Positions 21,059-27,133 of a DNA stretch of 32,508 nucleotides are shown one piece after another. Location: the NCBI GenBank assembly GCA_041491545.1, contig JBGPVE010000003.1, positions 1-32,508 on the forward strand, written 5' to 3'. The first letter of the stretch is position 1; every line of letters starts with the position of its first letter. Position numbers and translations under genes: made by a program. Source of the DNA: Gemmatimonadota bacterium. Its GTDB lineage: Bacteria > Gemmatimonadota > Gemmatimonadetes > Gemmatimonadales > GWC2-71-9. The notes under the pieces are model-generated. The model had not been told where the DNA came from. It saw only the letters and a program-made list of their open reading frames with translations, and did not search any database.

Positions 21059-21898
21059 ATGCACCCGTCGAAACCCGATTTTCCCGTGATCGATCTGCAC
21101 AGCCACCTGGTTCCCGCCGTGGACGACGGCGCCGCCACCGTCGAAGAAGCCCTCGACTCGCTTCGCTCGCTCCACTCAGAGGGTGTCACCGCACTGGTCA
21201 CCACCCCGCACCTCATGCTCCCACGGCTGGACACCGCCGCGGCCATCGACCGCGAGCTGGAGCGGCACCGCCGGGCGTTCGAGCGGTTGCTCACGGCGGC
21301 CGACCAGGAAGAGGGCCTGCCTGAGCTGGAGTTGGGTCAGGAGATCTGGGCTTCGGACGCGGCTATGATCGAACGGGTGCTCCGCCGAACGGACGTGGGC
21401 CTGGCCGAGACGCGGTATTTGCTGGTGGAGTTCGGCTTTGTCCTGCTGGGGACCCACACCGACGTGATCGAGGCGGTGCTGGCGGCCGGGCGGCAGATCG
21501 TCATCGCGCACGCCGAGCGGTATCAGTATCCGCTGGCCGTCGATCCGATCGAGACGGCGCACGCCTGGCGGGAGCTAGGCGCGCTGCTCCAGATCAACGC
21601 GGGGAGCCTCACCGGGCACTACCGCGAGTCCAATCCGCAGTCGCAGACGCTTGCCTGGCGCCTCATCGATGAGGGATTGGCGGATCTGATCGCGACCGAC
21701 CACCACGGGTCGCGGCGGGTTGGCGTGTCGCCACTCGAGGCATGGCAGGCGCTCGAGGCGGCGGGACGAGCCGGCCAAGCGGAGATGCTGCTGCGTGAAA
21801 TTCCGGAACGAATCTGGCGCGATGAGCCGGTGATAGCCGCCGGAGCGGCCACCCGCGCCGCGCTCAGTACCAGCCGATCGGCTTCTCGTCGAGATTGA
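21059..21898 (+). CDS. PHP-family protein-tyrosine phosphatase (CpsB/CapC/YwqE-like)
   Basis: IDLHSHLVP.VDDGA, TTPH, GQE, YLLVEF, IAHAERY, LQINAGSL.G and ATDHH. Confidence 0.9.
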   Translation: MHPSKPDFPVIDLHSHLVPAVDDGAATVEEALDSLRSLHSEGVTALVTTPHLMLPRLDTAAAIDRELERHRRAFERLLTAADQEEGLPELELGQEIWASDAAMIERVLRRTDVGLAETRYLLVEFGFVLLGTHTDVIEAVLAAGRQIVIAHAERYQYPLAVDPIETAHAWRELGALLQINAGSLTGHYRESNPQSQTLAWRLIDEGLADLIATDHHGSRRVGVSPLEAWQALEAAGRAGQAEMLLREIPERIWRDEPVIAAGAATRAALSTSRSASRRD

Positions 21899-23366
21899 TG
21901 TAGACCTGCTTGGTCTCGAGGTACTCGTCGACTCCCCAGTGCCCCAACTCACGACCGAACCCGGAAGACTTGTAGCCGCCCCAGGGTGCTTCGACGAACG
22001 TCGGCTGCATGTGATTCACCCACACGATTCCAGCCTCCAACGCCTTCACCACCCGGAATGCCTTGAAGATGTCGCGGGTCCAGACGGCGGCCGCCAAGCC
22101 GTACGGCGTCGCGTTGGCGATCCGGATCGCGTCCGCCTCGTCCTTGAAGGGGATCACGCTCATCACCGGACCGAAGATCTCCTCCTGCGCGATGCGCGCG
22201 GAGTTGTCCACGTCGTAGAAAATCGTCGGCTCGACGTACCAGCCCTTGGCGTGCTCCTTCGGCACCCCGCCACCTAGCGCGACCTTCGCTTCCCGCCGGC
22301 CGATCTTCTGGTACTCGACGACCCGATCGCGCTGTGCCGCGCTCACCAGCGGCCCCATCTTGCTGGCGCGGTCGAGTCCGCTCCCGACTTTGATGGTCTT
22401 TGCCTTGGCGACCGCCGCGTCGAGAAACTTCTTGTAGATGTCCTTCTGCACCAGCACGCGGCTGCCGGCGGAGCACACCTCGCCTTGGTTGATGAAGACG
22501 CCGAAGAGCGCGCCATCCACGGCGTTCTCGAAGTCGGCGTCGCTGAAGAAGATGTTGGGCGATTTGCCCCCCAGCTCGAGTGAGACGCGCTTGAGCTGAT
22601 CGGCGGCGCTCCGCATGATGAGCTTGCCCACCTCGGCGCTGCCGGTGAACGCGATCTTGCGTGCGTCGGGATGGGCGACCAGCGGAGCCCCAGCGCCGGG
22701 CCCGTCCCCGGTGACGACGTTCACCACGCCGGGCGGCAGTCCGACCGACTCGAAGTCCTCCGCCAGCTTGAGAATCGAGAGCGGGGTCTGCTCCGCCGGC
22801 TTCAGAACGACGGTGCAGCCGGCCGCGAGCGCGGGCGCGATCTTCCACGCCGCCATCATCAGCGGGTAGTTCCAGGGAATGATCTGACCGGCCACGCCCA
22901 TCGGCTCCCGCATCGCGAACGCCACCGCGTCCGCCGGCACGGGCAATACCTCCCCATTGATCTTCGTGGCGAGGCCGCCGTAATACTCGAAACAGGTGGC
23001 GGTATCGTCCATGTCGAACTCGGACTCGGCGATCGGCTTGCCCGAGTTGAGGGTCTCGAGCTCCGCCAGCTCGGCGCGGCGGACGCGAATCCGTTCGGCG
23101 AGTCGAAAGAGCACCCGGCCTCGTTCCTGGGCCGTCACCGCCTTCCAGCCGCCGTAGAAGGCCCGCTTGGCAGCCTTCACGGCACGGTCGACGTCCTCCG
23201 ATCCGGCGGCCGGGCAGGTCGCGATCACCCCCTCGGTCGCGGGGTCGTACACCTCGAAAGTCTTGCCGCTCTTTGCTTCTACGAACCTGCCGTCGATGTA
23301 CATCCGGTAGGCGGTCACCGCGCGTCGCGCGGCGGGCCGCTTTGGGGCCTTCGCTGCAGTCGTCAT
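21864..23366 (-). CDS. Aldehyde dehydrogenase, betaine/aminoaldehyde dehydrogenase-like
   Basis: IIPWNYPL, KPAEQTP, FTGS, LELGGKSP, catalytic NQGEVCSAG, EEIFGPV and PWGGYKSSGFGRELG. Aminoaldehyde specificity is inferred from these motifs and the gene context. Confidence 0.9.
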   Translation of the reverse strand: MTTAAKAPKRPAARRAVTAYRMYIDGRFVEAKSGKTFEVYDPATEGVIATCPAAGSEDVDRAVKAAKRAFYGGWKAVTAQERGRVLFRLAERIRVRRAELAELETLNSGKPIAESEFDMDDTATCFEYYGGLATKINGEVLPVPADAVAFAMREPMGVAGQIIPWNYPLMMAAWKIAPALAAGCTVVLKPAEQTPLSILKLAEDFESVGLPPGVVNVVTGDGPGAGAPLVAHPDARKIAFTGSAEVGKLIMRSAADQLKRVSLELGGKSPNIFFSDADFENAVDGALFGVFINQGEVCSAGSRVLVQKDIYKKFLDAAVAKAKTIKVGSGLDRASKMGPLVSAAQRDRVVEYQKIGRREAKVALGGGVPKEHAKGWYVEPTIFYDVDNSARIAQEEIFGPVMSVIPFKDEADAIRIANATPYGLAAAVWTRDIFKAFRVVKALEAGIVWVNHMQPTFVEAPWGGYKSSGFGRELGHWGVDEYLETKQVYINLDEKPIGWY

Positions 23367-23398: not shown

Positions 23399-24637
23399 TC
23401 AAGCGGCAGGCACGAGAAAGGGTACGGTCGTCTCCTGGGGCAGATCCCGCATCGACATGGTGTCGTCGCGGATATACCATGGCATCCCCGCCGAGCCCAG
23501 CCGGTCCAAGAACGGATCGGGGTCCAGCTGTTCCGGCGATATGACGCCGATGCCGGACCAGATGCCCTCAGCGATGAGCCCGGCCGCGATGACGGGCGGG
23601 ATCCCCGTCTGATACGCGGTGGCCTGAACGCCAAGCTCGGCGTAGACCCGCTCGTGATCGCAGATGTTGTAGATGTAATACGCGCGTGGCTTCCCGTCCT
23701 TGAACCCGCGGGCCAGCGTGCCGACGCAGGTCTTCCCGCGGAGGCGGCCGGCAAGGTCGTTGGGCTCGGGCATCAGCGACACGACCACGTCCCGCGGTCG
23801 CACTTCCACGTCGCCGACTTCGACGAGATCCTTGCGGGAGAGGCCGAGGCGCCACATGACCCGCAGGGTTTCGACCGTGACGTCGTCCATGCAGAGCTTG
23901 AAGTCGACGGTCCGGGTCCGCGGGAAGAACCGCGGCAGGGTCTTCGACTCCTCGTGATCGACGTAGAAGCAGTTGAGCGTGCCCAGCTCGGGAAACACGA
24001 ACGGCTCGAGTCCGCTGAGCGGCTCTTCCAAGTGGTAGCGACCGTCCCGCCAGGAGACGGCCTTGCAGAGACATTCATCGATGAAGACCCATGGGCTGAA
24101 CGCGGCGATGAAGCCGTTGTGGCCCTGGCATACCGAATTGTCGCCGTCGCGGATGCGCAGCTCGGTCACCTCATCCAGGAGGTGCTTCGCCGCATACGCG
24201 GCATAGACGTTGGAGGTACCCGGGTCGGCTCCCATACCGAGGAGCGCGAGTCGGCCGGCCGCCTTGAACTCGGCGTCCAGCGCGAACTGATCTTCCAGCT
24301 TGGGGATTCCGTCGGCATCGGTGCCGCCGCTGGCCATGTCGATATAGTCGCACCCGGCGTCGAGACAGGCGCGCATGACGACCAGATTGGTGACGGGCAG
24401 TGCCGCGTTCAACAGAACGGTGGTACCGGTGTCGCGGAGGACGCGGGCGAGATCGGTACGGCTCGCCGCATCGAGGGTAACGGCCCGGACCCTTGGGTCA
24501 TCAAGCCGGTCCGCGAGTAGGGCTGCGCGGGCGGACACCGCGTCGGCGACGACGAGTTGCTCGACGTTCGCCTCCTGCACGAATTTGAGAGCGGACACGG
24601 TCCCCACCGCGCCGGCCCCGAGGACCAGGACTTTCAC
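23399..24637 (-). CDS. Saccharopine dehydrogenase-family enzyme, carboxy(nor)spermidine dehydrogenase-like
   Basis: Rossmann VLVLGAGAVG, NAALP, YID.A, GMGADPG, AYAAKHLLDEV, HEE and QATAYQTGIP resemble CASDH/CANSDH. GAGGAG SD lies 3 nt before the GTG. Confidence 0.8.
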   Translation of the reverse strand: MKVLVLGAGAVGTVSALKFVQEANVEQLVVADAVSARAALLADRLDDPRVRAVTLDAASRTDLARVLRDTGTTVLLNAALPVTNLVVMRACLDAGCDYIDMASGGTDADGIPKLEDQFALDAEFKAAGRLALLGMGADPGTSNVYAAYAAKHLLDEVTELRIRDGDNSVCQGHNGFIAAFSPWVFIDECLCKAVSWRDGRYHLEEPLSGLEPFVFPELGTLNCFYVDHEESKTLPRFFPRTRTVDFKLCMDDVTVETLRVMWRLGLSRKDLVEVGDVEVRPRDVVVSLMPEPNDLAGRLRGKTCVGTLARGFKDGKPRAYYIYNICDHERVYAELGVQATAYQTGIPPVIAAGLIAEGIWSGIGVISPEQLDPDPFLDRLGSAGMPWYIRDDTMSMRDLPQETTVPFLVPAA

Positions 24638-24800
24638 AAACTCCTCTTTTCATTGTTGGCGCGGCACCGGTCCGGGAGACGAGCTCCCTCGCCCCCGCCG
24701 CAGATGGGGGCTCGCAGCTCAAGGAGAAAGTCAGCTGCGAGAGTGGACCCTCCGCTTGGTCGGAGGATGCAAACACGCCCTGCCGGGAGGCAGGCCGCAT
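24638..24800 (-). ncRNA. Candidate structured cis-regulatory 5' leader (riboswitch-like)
   Basis: Five consecutive hairpins plus closing helices lie between an extended -10 and the SD. One loop carries CUCCUU, complementary to the SD. It matches no riboswitch class I recognise. Confidence 0.5.
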
Positions 24801-24804
24801 AGCC

Positions 24805-24835
24805 ACTCTACCACCGACCCCCCACCCCTTGTCCA
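24805..24835 (-). promoter_or_regulatory. Putative sigma70 extended -10 promoter of the dehydrogenase-ALDH operon
   Basis: Minus strand reads TGGACA-N19-TAGAGT with a TGn extension. The spacer is long. Confidence 0.4.
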
Positions 24836-24933
24836 GCCCCCCCGAAAGCACCCAGAAGGGACAAAGTTGTGCCTGGCTCTCCGGCCGTTTGGTGCAACGT
24901 CTTGCAGGGAAGCGCCTTACAGAGGCCGGCTCC

Positions 24934-25037
24934 GCGGATCGGTGGCCGGCGGAGCGCGCTGCGGTTCGCGAGCAGGGGGGTGGGTTGTAACAGAAGCGGC
25001 TGCTCACCGACGCGCGCTCCGCCAGCCACCGATCCGC
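24934..25037. repeat. 26-bp inverted repeat forming a long hairpin
   Basis: GCGGATCGGTGGCCGGCGGAGCGCGC (24934-24959) pairs with 25012-25037 at 25 of 26 positions. Inner pairings are CGGT/ACCG and GAGCAG/CTGCTC. Confidence 0.9.
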
Positions 25038-25162
25038 TGCGCCCGAAGGGCGGGCACGCCAATGCGGGCATTTTGATCGACCGGATTCGCTGCACGTACA
25101 TGGACGGGGCGCATGGCGGGCGGTTGGGGGCGATGGCATCTTTGCTCATCCACGAGGATGCG

Positions 25163-27133
25163 ATGCACGACTCCGACGACAAGCGATTGGGGATGGACCG
25201 CGCGATTCCACGTCGAGACTTTCTCAACGGCGTGGCGCTCGCCGTGGGGGGAGCACTGCTCTCGCACGGGACGTCGATGTCGCCCGGTGCGCTCCTCGCG
25301 CTTCAGGGCGACGACTTCGCGCCGGAGCGCGCGCGGGGTTATTACCCGCCGGCGCTCACGGGACTTCGCGGGAGCCACCCGGGGTCGTACGAGGTCGCGC
25401 ACCGGCTGCGTGACGGCGGACTCGATGCGATGATGCGGAGCGCGCGTCCCAGCCGCGAAACGTACGATCTGATCGTCGTGGGCGGCGGCATCAGCGGCCT
25501 CGCCGCCGCGCACTTCTACCACCAGTCTGCGGGGCACGGCGCGCGGGTCCTCGTCCTCGACAATCACGACGATTTCGGCGGCCATGCCAAGCGGAACGAG
25601 TTCCGCTGCGACGGGCGGCTCCTGATCGGCTACGGGGGAACCCAATCGATCGACGCACCCTCGCGCTACAGCGCCGAGGCGCGCGGACTCCTGACGGAGT
25701 TGGGGATCGACGTGCGGAAGTTCCATCAGGCCTTCGATCAGACGTTCTACAGCTCCCGCCATCTCAAGCCCTCGGTGTTTCTCGGCCGCGAGACGTTCGG
25801 CGCCGATGGGCTGATCGTGGGTTTCGGCCGGCGGCAGGCCTCCGACGCGACTCGTGCCCAGTTGCTGAAGGGTGCTCCGCTCTCCGACGCGGCGCGGGCC
25901 GGCATCGAGCGCGTGTTGTCGGACAAGACCGACCACCTCCCCGGTCTCACATCCGACGCCAAGAAGGCTCGCCTCGCGCGCACGAGCTACCGCGACTATC
26001 TGCTGCAGGTGCTGCGGGTCCATCCGGACACGATCCCGTTCTTCCAGACATGGACCCACGATCTGTACGGCGTGGGCATCGACGCCGTGCCGGCGCTCGA
26101 CTGCTGGGGTCTCGACTTTCCCGGATTCGAGGGGCTCAATCTGGCGCCGGGCGCAGCACCCGGCATCTCGCGCACCGCCGAGCCGCACGAGGAAGAGCCG
26201 TACATCTTCCACTTCCCCGACGGGAACGCGTCGGTCGCGCGGCTGCTGGTGCGGCGTCTCGTGCCCGGCGCGGCACCGGGTCACACGATGGAGGACATCG
26301 TGACGGCGCGGGTGGACTACGCCCGGCTCGACCTGCCGGGCTCATCGACCCGAATCCGGCTCAACAGCACGGCCATTCGGGTGCGGCACGTCGGCGACCC
26401 GTCCAATGCGCACGAGGTGGAGGTGACGTACGCACGCGGAGGGAGAGTGCGCACGGTGCGGGCGGGCGGGTGCGTGCTGGCCTGCTGGAACGGGATGATT
26501 CCCTACCTCTGCCCCGAGCTGCCGGCGCCGCAGAAAGAGGCGCTCGCATACGGGGTGAAGGTGCCGCTGGTCTACACCAACGTGGCGCTCCGCAACTGGC
26601 GTGCGTTCGCGAAGCTCGGCATATCCTCGATCACCGCGCCGGGGAGCTACTACTCAGCCGCGAGCCTCGATTTTCCGGTGAGTCTGGGCCAGTATCACTT
26701 CTCGCGCTCGCCGGACGAGCCGATCGTGCTGCACGTCCTGCGGACGCCGTGCAGCCCGGGGCTCCCCGCGCGGCAGCAACACCGGATCGGCCATGCGGAG
26801 CTGCTGACGACGTCGTTCCAGACCTTCGAGCGACACCTTCGGGACCAGCTCGGCCGGATGCTGGTGGGGGGCGGGTTCGATCCGGCGCGGGACATCGCCG
26901 GGATCACCGTGAACCGTTGGCCGCACGGCTACGCGTACGAGTACAACTCGCTGTGGGATCCGCTGTGGCCGGCGGATCAGCAGCCCTGCGTGATCGGCCG
27001 CAAGCCGTTCGGGCGGATCACGATCGCGAACTCCGACGCCGGCGCGTACGCCTACACCAACTGCGCCATCGACCAGGCGCATCGCGCGGTTGGCGAGGTC
27101 GTCGCGGCCGTTGGAGTCGCGCACCGAAGCTGA
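25163..27133 (+). CDS. spdH: Spermidine dehydrogenase SpdH-like flavoprotein with Tat signal
   Basis: PRRDFLNG Tat motif, YYPPALTGLRGSHPGSYEVAH, VVGGGISGLAAA, LDNHDDFGGHAKRNEF, GYGGTQSI, FPDGNAS, NRWPHGYAY and IANSDAGA, all characteristic of the P. aeruginosa SpdH family. GAGGA SD before ATG 25163. Confidence 0.85.
   Translation: MHDSDDKRLGMDRAIPRRDFLNGVALAVGGALLSHGTSMSPGALLALQGDDFAPERARGYYPPALTGLRGSHPGSYEVAHRLRDGGLDAMMRSARPSRETYDLIVVGGGISGLAAAHFYHQSAGHGARVLVLDNHDDFGGHAKRNEFRCDGRLLIGYGGTQSIDAPSRYSAEARGLLTELGIDVRKFHQAFDQTFYSSRHLKPSVFLGRETFGADGLIVGFGRRQASDATRAQLLKGAPLSDAARAGIERVLSDKTDHLPGLTSDAKKARLARTSYRDYLLQVLRVHPDTIPFFQTWTHDLYGVGIDAVPALDCWGLDFPGFEGLNLAPGAAPGISRTAEPHEEEPYIFHFPDGNASVARLLVRRLVPGAAPGHTMEDIVTARVDYARLDLPGSSTRIRLNSTAIRVRHVGDPSNAHEVEVTYARGGRVRTVRAGGCVLACWNGMIPYLCPELPAPQKEALAYGVKVPLVYTNVALRNWRAFAKLGISSITAPGSYYSAASLDFPVSLGQYHFSRSPDEPIVLHVLRTPCSPGLPARQQHRIGHAELLTTSFQTFERHLRDQLGRMLVGGGFDPARDIAGITVNRWPHGYAYEYNSLWDPLWPADQQPCVIGRKPFGRITIANSDAGAYAYTNCAIDQAHRAVGEVVAAVGVAHRS

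Follow-up and report, generated by a model that had tools for sequence, protein, structure and literature searches.

Does the stretch preceding the CASDH-like dehydrogenase gene in the window, the whole 32,508 nt of Gemmatimonadota DNA analyzed here, encode a folded regulatory RNA, or are its hairpins what any G+C-rich sequence would form? A sequence-only reading had described a riboswitch-like, multi-hairpin leader of a CASDH-like/ALDH operon on the minus strand, had cautioned that high G+C makes chance hairpins common, and had suggested a comparison with Rfam and with orthologous leaders. In the mRNA sense, the leader spans 24635-24804 (-); all RNA features below are given on this strand. 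Every hairpin that had been named was found in place: CCUGCC/GGCAGG (24794-24789 with 24784-24779), AUCCUCCG/CGGAGGGU (24768-24761 with 24754-24747), CUCGCAGCU/AGCUGCGAG (24741-24733 with 24719-24711) enclosing the loop GACUUUCUCCUUG (24732-24720), GCCCCC/GGGGGC (24711-24706 with 24696-24691) and GGGAG/CUCCC (24688-24684 with 24678-24674). The long-range complementarity GGUCC/GGACC (24749-24745 with 24673-24669) is also present. The MFE of the 181 nt stretch was -77.4 kcal/mol versus -72.95 ± 4.78 kcal/mol for 200 dinucleotide shuffles, 36 of which folded as well as the native leader or better. This z-score of only -0.93, together with the G+C of 0.68 in the leader region, justifies the caution, and it is what speaks for regarding the hairpins as functionless accidents of intergenic sequence at 68% G+C. 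Because the single-sequence fold lies within chance, the question needed a comparison with relatives.

Close orthologues of the CASDH-like protein (70-80% identity) were found by protein search in seven genomes besides the window's own, among 61 related genomes. In the six of these whose contigs extend far enough 5′, the gene is preceded by a leader of striking conservation. From seven orthologous leaders we built a covariance model (R1); when 151 genomes of the family were searched, it matched exactly once in each of 17, which belong to 8 of 78 genera. In a phylum-wide sample, R1 matched 17 of the 71 genomes of the leader's family; on 79 genomes of 11 other families it gave only one match of 23 bits and 67 nt, which is taken as chance. 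Two genomes flagged as unpublished (G008 and G031) are counted in the 61-genome orthologue tally and possibly also within the 151-genome, phylum-wide and speE tallies; none of the claims depends on these two. One genome from each of 185,579 species was scanned with a degenerate pattern, which yielded at least 119 stretches, and 80 loci were retrieved. Among the matches listed, all of these are titled Gemmatimonadales, Gemmatimonadota or Gemmatimonadaceae except one MAG labelled NC10. R1 fits 98 of the 98 collected loci with 108.8-211.4 bits, 97 at full length and one truncated by a contig end; as with all distribution figures here, these numbers come from samples, and the related sequences are not independent. 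The only non-Gemmatimonad-titled carrier among the matches listed, the candidate division NC10 MAG (L082; 187 bits, protein branch 0.74), is probably a mis-binned or error-rich contig.

The 98 leaders were aligned in 88 distinct rows. Mean pairwise identity is 0.894 in the leader core and 0.43 in the interiors of two of its helices, P1 and P5. In the first 150 nt of the CDS, identity is 0.80 at the first, 0.87 at the second and 0.65 at the third codon position, so that the core is conserved above every codon position of its CDS (0.894 versus a maximum of 0.87). The P5 region varies from 15 to 80 nt in relatives, and since the length differences in P1 and P5 are not multiples of 3, the leader is under no coding constraint.

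The helices of the model (P1, Pc, P2, P3, P4 and P5) and a pseudoknot are paired in 97.6% of 3394 cells, as compared with 39.8-51.0% when the partners were slid by 1-3 columns, in an alignment that was fitted to the model and favours the modelled helices, the pseudoknot being exempt. Compensatory changes were found in 15 of 39 pairs, and the observed values were reached by none of 500 shuffles. G-U pairs are frequent (77 rows have U-G at one pair and 84 at another) and fit the mRNA strand only. Conservation and covariation, the two properties for which the sequence-only reading had proposed that orthologous leaders be compared, are thus both present among the 98 homologues (88 distinct).

The individual helices vary in different ways. 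P1 (24774-24799), a sequence-variable hairpin with the strands UGCGGCCUGCC and GGCAGGGCGUG, has changed on both sides in all four modelled pairs (e.g., C-G 64/U-A 22 and G-C 55/A-U 22/C-G 3); its interior is unalignable across genera, yet it forms a hairpin in every case. The P2 hairpin AUCCUCCG-ACCAAG-CGGAGGGU (24747-24768) is paired in 99.7% of cells and shows compensatory changes in four of eight pairs. It is followed by the conserved unpaired J2/3 (24742-24746), where 55 of 85 rows have CCACU and 14 have CCGAU. The 9 bp hairpin P3 (24711-24741), paired in 99.9% of cells, carries the conserved 13 nt loop GAC..YMYCCUUG (24720-24732), and four of its nine pairs have changed in a compensatory manner, including G-C 54/A-U 31, A-U 64/G-C 15 and G-C 70/A-U 17. 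P4 (24692-24710; CCCCC/GGGGG with the loop AUCUGCGGC) is near-invariant: 99.8% of its cells are paired, four pairs never change and the fifth is C-G in 62 and U-G in 25 rows. J4/5 (24687-24691) is CGAGG in 84 of 85 rows. P5 (24674-24688), here GGGAG-CUCGU-CUCCC, is a hairpin of variable length with compensatory changes in two of its four base pairs. Of the five stems proposed from the single sequence, those in P1, P2, P3 and P5 have gained the support of compensatory changes, and that in P4 is kept in the relatives, where it varies only from C-G to U-G.

A helix that would enclose P2 to P5 was predicted by RNAalifold between GUUUG (24770-24774) and a 3′ strand that reads CGGAC in the window (24670-24674) and CAGAC in most relatives. 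In the pair counts, 98.3% of the cells of this helix, Pc, are paired. Its changes are one-sided only (U-A 80/U-G 7 and U-G 84/U-A 2), a G-C pair is mismatched in four rows, and the helix is largely broken in one lineage (L042/L049). GUUUG/C(A/G)GAC is probably a long-range helix closing a multi-helix junction, an assignment that is consistent with the counts and unproven by compensation. As an alternative to Pc, pairing of CAGAC with a second GUUUG at the start codon was considered and rejected because the start-region variants GUGUG and GUCUG are uncompensated. One further locus (L047; G175:C167, 1501-1678; 43.9 bits) keeps the 3′ half of the leader with P5, the tail and the SD, and has C/G-rich sequence as its P1-P3 part; the copy has either degenerated or been misassembled, a contig end being close by.

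Absent from the sequence-only reading is a pseudoknot between the 3′ part of the P4 loop, GCGGC (24697-24701), and GCCGC in the 3′ tail (24661-24665), with the consensus GCGG[C/G] in the loop and [G/C]CCGC in the tail. At one of its column pairs (134-272), 58 of 87 rows have C-G, 29 have G-C and none is unpaired. On a tree of 84 distinct downstream proteins, this state has switched at least four times, with no mismatched intermediate. As the search model did not contain the pseudoknot, the alignment is not biased towards this pairing. P3 and P4 abut without a linker, so that coaxial stacking with the pseudoknot is possible, and P3, P4 and the pseudoknot may form one coaxial stack. The reading of the hairpins as products of base composition is already refuted and retains a vanishingly small likelihood: the leader is conserved above its CDS, 15 pairs are compensatory, the pseudoknot covaries through at least four independent switches, and the element occurs in all 98 homologous loci. 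What had been flagged is thus a genuine folded RNA under strong conservation, a leader that precedes a polyamine-type dehydrogenase gene in one family of soil Gemmatimonadales. On this comparative evidence, the leader is a conserved complex RNA domain of ~165 nt comprising P1, then a junction of P2, P3, P4 and P5 that is probably closed by Pc, and an H-type pseudoknot.

The three long-range pairings that had been proposed earlier show compensatory change in none of 15 pairs, and the 81.0% of their cells that are paired equals the shuffled mean. GGUCC/GGACC, which had been suggested to close a multiway junction, does not covary, and no more than 7 of 85 rows have its fifth pair; GGACC is peculiar to the window's lineage, and most relatives have CAGACC. 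The helix proposed to close the whole domain, 5′-GCGGC with GCCGC, is paired in 67.6% of cells with no covariation. Its 5′ strand GCGGC covaries inside P1, and GCCGC pairs with the P4 loop instead.

The third of these pairings underlies the proposal that CUCCUU in the P3 loop pairs with the SD GAGGAG, forming a ligand-controlled loop-SD pseudoknot that blocks translation. The 6 bp complementarity does exist in the window and in 67 of 87 rows, its CCUU:GAGG core is invariant on both sides, and duplex energies rank the P3 loop first among SD partners in 26 of 85 sequences; the fixed linker of 12-14 nt upstream of the SD could let the SD reach the loop. In the other 20 of 87 rows, however, CUCCUU has become CACCCUU or UACCCUU (loops CACCCUUG and UACCCUUG), breaking two of the six pairs, while the SD is unchanged throughout, and not a single compensatory change was found. 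In addition, the CCUUG of the P3 loop is complementary to CGAGG of J4/5, both sides being invariant, and the loop may have this internal partner instead. We consider a loop-SD switch quite improbable.

The ribosome-binding module (24627-24646) contains the SD GAGGAG (24641-24646) and the GTG start codon (24635-24637), and GAAAAGAGGAGUUUGUG within it is nearly invariant across relatives. The A/C-rich linker between the pseudoknot and the SD (24647-24660) is 12-14 nt long in 83 of 85 rows and variable in sequence in its 5′ half. In the window, the pseudoknot ends 24 nt 5′ of the start codon and 14 nt 5′ of the SD; at 24 nt from the start codon, it lies outside the stretch needed for direct masking of the SD. 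A weak hairpin of SD and start codon, AGGAgUUU-GUG-AAAgUCCU (-5.1 kcal/mol), is predicted in most variants and lost in the GUCAUG variants. We searched 85 sequences for a conserved anti-SD partner by duplex energies and found none; the partners are heterogeneous, the strongest lying in the P3 loop in 26, in P2 in ~15 and in variable regions in the remaining sequences. The search of the leader for a conserved alternative (switching) structure gave none, and a promoter/terminator scan of the leader region called no intrinsic terminator. Leader positions were also compared by mutual information with the 60 nt that open the CDS; the top pairs correspond to an Ala/Ser codon difference between two clades and are read as reflecting shared descent, not pairing.

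Upstream of the leader, the -35-like hexamer TGGACA (24830-24835), within a conserved G-rich block, is kept upstream of TAnnnT, represented in the window by the -10-like hexamer TAGAGT (24805-24810), which is fixed directly 5′ of the start of the RNA model. TGGACA or a near variant together with TAnnnT was found in 76 of 89 distinct upstream sequences, with a spacer of 19 nt in 74 rows and 18 nt in two. In these 76 rows, 12 different -10-like hexamers occur, all of which keep T1, A2 and T6; the other 13 rows mostly have CAGACT. A strict sigma-70 scan allowing spacers of 16-18 nt called no promoter, as expected from the 19 nt spacer. TGGACA-N19-TAnnnT is therefore best described as a promoter-like element with an unusual spacer. 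The TSS would lie at ~24797-24799, 6-8 nt downstream of the -10-like hexamer; this predicted position agrees with the earlier guess of a TSS near 24798, the conserved element ending at 24805. Conserved G-runs (GGGGGCTGGACAGGGGGTGGGGGG...; 24811-24848) lie in and around the promoter-like element at the same place in 89 homologous upstream sequences, with three to four runs of at least four G on the non-template strand, and could form a G-quadruplex or a regulator-binding site.

Contigs of a soil metatranscriptome run (share of words 0.05) were compared with positions 23900-25100: short contigs, mostly those of relatives, fall on 24592-24768 and none on 24802-25100, it being understood that such contigs show no start, end, strand or level and that the libraries may contain DNA.

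Between the promoter-like element and a divergent FAD-oxidoreductase ORF lies an inverted repeat (24928-25043) with 38 nt arms that are 87% complementary and 40 nt apart. It has hardly any counterpart in the genome, where a single 23 nt stretch also matches, and it gives weak matches to plant miRNA models (36 bits versus a gathering score of 168). Just 3′ of the CASDH-like gene in two relatives (L113, 2891-2993; L055, 2846-2933), long hairpins match miRNA precursor models on both strands at 28-35 bits, below gathering; these long palindromes appear to be of one kind with the repeat upstream in the window. In the divergent ORF (24869-27133, +), the FAD/NAD-binding Rossmann motif begins only at residue 200 and the GC3 signal starts from 25040-25100; therefore, its true start is probably well inside the listed frame. 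This gene is conserved beside the leader only in the window's own genus.

The best explanation of 24635-24804 (-) is that it is the complete 5′ untranslated leader of the CASDH-like dehydrogenase gene. This gene (23399-24637, minus strand) encodes a 412 aa CASDH-like enzyme of the saccharopine dehydrogenase family, with the Pfam domains Sacchrp_dh_NADP and Sacchrp_dh_C. Its best PDB matches are 4INA (1e-75) and 8DEB, the Bacteroides carboxyspermidine dehydrogenase (1e-72); against the NCBIfam carboxynorspermidine synthase model NF043000, it scores 214 bits, under the equivalog cut-off of 800. The same CASDH-like gene lies directly downstream of the leader in 79 of the 80 loci retrieved, and the sole miss is truncated by a contig end. 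The next gene in the window (21864-23366, minus strand) encodes a 500 aa aldehyde dehydrogenase (Pfam Aldedh) of the BADH or aminobutyraldehyde dehydrogenase type, whose best NCBIfam match, BADH, reaches 602.8 bits, under the cut-off of 668.6; its aminobutyraldehyde dehydrogenase match is also below cut-off. This ALDH follows the CASDH-like gene in g1, g37 and g79 and is absent from the g3, g8, g13 and g16 loci. In g8, g13 and g16, PAP2, small ORFs, MgtE and Yip1 come after the CASDH-like gene, and in g3 the single downstream family found is a glyoxalase-fold protein. Neither a constant partner gene nor a conserved adjacent regulator gene was found among the genera compared, in which the neighbours vary; hence the leader is tied to the dehydrogenase alone. 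The operon assignment of the sequence-only reading is accordingly sound for the CASDH-like gene and does not extend to the ALDH gene, which is no constant partner and is missing in several genera.

The gene and leader form a module of patchy distribution: within the window's genus, just four of the 17 other genomes have close orthologues. The module occurs in two neighbourhoods, one with ALDH and the other with PAP2, MgtE and Yip1. The patchy presence and the two neighbourhoods suggest that gene plus leader is an accessory module moving within the family.

Could the leader respond to a general physical signal, such as Mg2+, the total polycation level or temperature, rather than to a specific metabolite? 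The gene for the Mg2+ transporter MgtE lies 1.5-2.8 kb downstream in three genera, and G/C-rich pseudoknotted folds are sensitive to cations. Other genes, sometimes on the opposite strand, nevertheless stand between the leader and MgtE, which is absent from the ALDH-type contexts, and the leader is tied to one enzyme gene only. We regard this possibility as very improbable.

The genomic context of polyamine synthesis was also considered. The usual partner of such an enzyme is the carboxy(nor)spermidine decarboxylase nspC (TIGR01047). The genome of the window, 92.5% complete, has no match to it, and five other leader-bearing genomes gave only 24-34 bits versus a cut-off of 409. Canonical speE (spermidine synthase, TIGR00417) is above cut-off in none of 61 genomes (G000 and 60 relatives); in these, speE-like matches occur only within long open frames, mostly of ~500-1500 aa. 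Polyamine synthesis in this group seems to be non-canonical, judging from these gene searches. As a contrast between genomes with and without the leader, nspC and speE gave no usable difference and were set aside. It is a reasonable guess, and no more, that the CASDH-like enzyme acts as an NAD(P)-dependent amine-cleaving (catabolic) enzyme alongside an aminoaldehyde dehydrogenase.

What, then, does the leader do? The complexity of its fold, the invariant junction nucleotides, the promoter-adjacent position and the exclusive gene link are the usual marks of a riboswitch aptamer. We favour, with a probability of roughly 55%, a candidate ligand-sensing, riboswitch-type cis-regulator acting on translation. 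A small molecule or ion tied to the chemistry of the enzyme would bind the leader, a polyamine-type amine being our first guess; binding would stabilize the pseudoknotted junction, and the stabilized junction would alter the availability of the SD and start codon for translation initiation. Several results count against this reading: no conserved switching structure and no terminator were found, Pc varies on one side only, the pseudoknot lies too far 5′ to mask the SD directly, and nspC is missing from the genomes searched. The comparison shows the RNA family with its helices and pseudoknot, its exclusive, single-copy association with this gene and its place immediately behind a conserved promoter-like element; ligand sensing itself, the identity of the ligand, the on or off direction of the response and translational rather than transcriptional control are all points that we infer. 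The earlier description, that of a structured and riboswitch-like leader 5′ of the CASDH-like gene, has been borne out by the compensatory changes and the gene link.

A protein could take the place of the metabolite: the leader may bind a translational repressor, or the enzyme itself in autoregulation, and not a metabolite directly. The evidence for a conserved structured leader fits such binding equally well, a conserved switching helix was not found, and the invariant ribosome-binding module and fixed linker length could mark a protein footprint. Against this stand the variable neighbours, among which no regulator gene is conserved beside the leader, and the RNA itself, since five helices and a pseudoknot with many invariant junction nucleotides over ~165 nt would be unusually complex for a protein-binding leader, most of which are probably simpler. 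We judge a protein ligand somewhat unlikely.

The ligand-sensing reading can be sharpened into a larger claim, namely that the leader represents a riboswitch class not described before, restricted to one Gemmatimonadales family, whose distinct fold would be a five-helix junction locked by the P4-loop/3′-tail pseudoknot. Its ligand would be a polyamine-type amine, or some other compound that a stand-alone CASDH-like dehydrogenase consumes or produces, and its target the translation of that enzyme. In this complete form the claim is decidedly unlikely. If true, it would bring the natural riboswitch classes that respond to polyamines to two, would be the first class described specifically from the Gemmatimonadota, soil bacteria that are for the most part uncultured, and would point to an uncharacterized NAD(P)-dependent amine pathway. 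The enzyme belongs to the carboxyspermidine dehydrogenase family and lacks the usual decarboxylase partner, and the ligand would help to assign its pathway. Rare, narrowly distributed classes now drive riboswitch discovery, each revealing a new RNA fold and a metabolite that cells have to monitor. With ~100 representatives, many compensatory pairs, a covarying pseudoknot and an exclusive gene, the motif reaches the usual comparative bar for nomination as a candidate.

We compared the leader with known RNA families. None of the 4227 models of Rfam 15 gave a match anywhere in the window at the gathering score, no match at E ≤ 10 overlaps 24635-24810, and at E ≤ 1 no match lies inside the motif at 15 homologous loci. 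The Rfam comparison suggested by the sequence-only reading thus leaves the leader unexplained by any family, in the window and at the 15 homologous loci alike; nearby, the only matches are to miRNA models of plants and viruses, on long hairpins unrelated to the motif. In the literature covered, with subscription journals largely outside its scope, we found no description of the motif and none of any Gemmatimonadota riboswitch class. The leader is, from these searches, a new orphan riboswitch candidate absent from the catalogued RNA families. Orphan riboswitch catalogues of the Breaker/Weinberg type are largely contained in Rfam. Like the candidates in them, the leader has a conserved, covarying 5′ UTR structure and a narrow gene association; unlike the catalogued motifs, it has no match among the 4227 families.

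The closest functional parallel concerns polyamines. According to Salvail et al., 2023 (PMC10853860), the spermidine riboswitch is a rare SAM-I variant with a four-way junction, represented by 13 examples from Gram-positive genera and metagenomic DNA, which acts by transcription termination. It resembles the leader in being a structured 5′ leader before polyamine-pathway genes, with a multi-helix junction and a pseudoknot, and the leader would likewise sense an amine. Unlike this SAM-I variant acting by termination, the leader has neither a SAM-family Rfam match nor a terminator and resides in a Gemmatimonadales host; the folds of the two are unrelated. With respect to the SAM-I four-way junction consensus (RF00162-like), no SAM-family match was obtained in the window or its 15 homologues.

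The lysine riboswitch (L-box, RF00168) combines a five-helix junction, a long-range loop contact and a link to lysine/saccharopine-type metabolism, and by this description the leader would be similar in all three respects. It differs in that RF00168 matches neither the window (E ≤ 10) nor the 15 homologues (E ≤ 1), and its junction sequences and loop-to-tail pseudoknot are different. The preQ1-II and SAM-II riboswitches are small RNAs with H-type pseudoknots that act on translation, the SD lying inside the pseudoknot. As in these, a hairpin loop of the leader pairs with a 3′ tail near the ribosome-binding site; unlike them, the leader embeds its pseudoknot in a domain of ~165 nt and ends it 14 nt before the SD.
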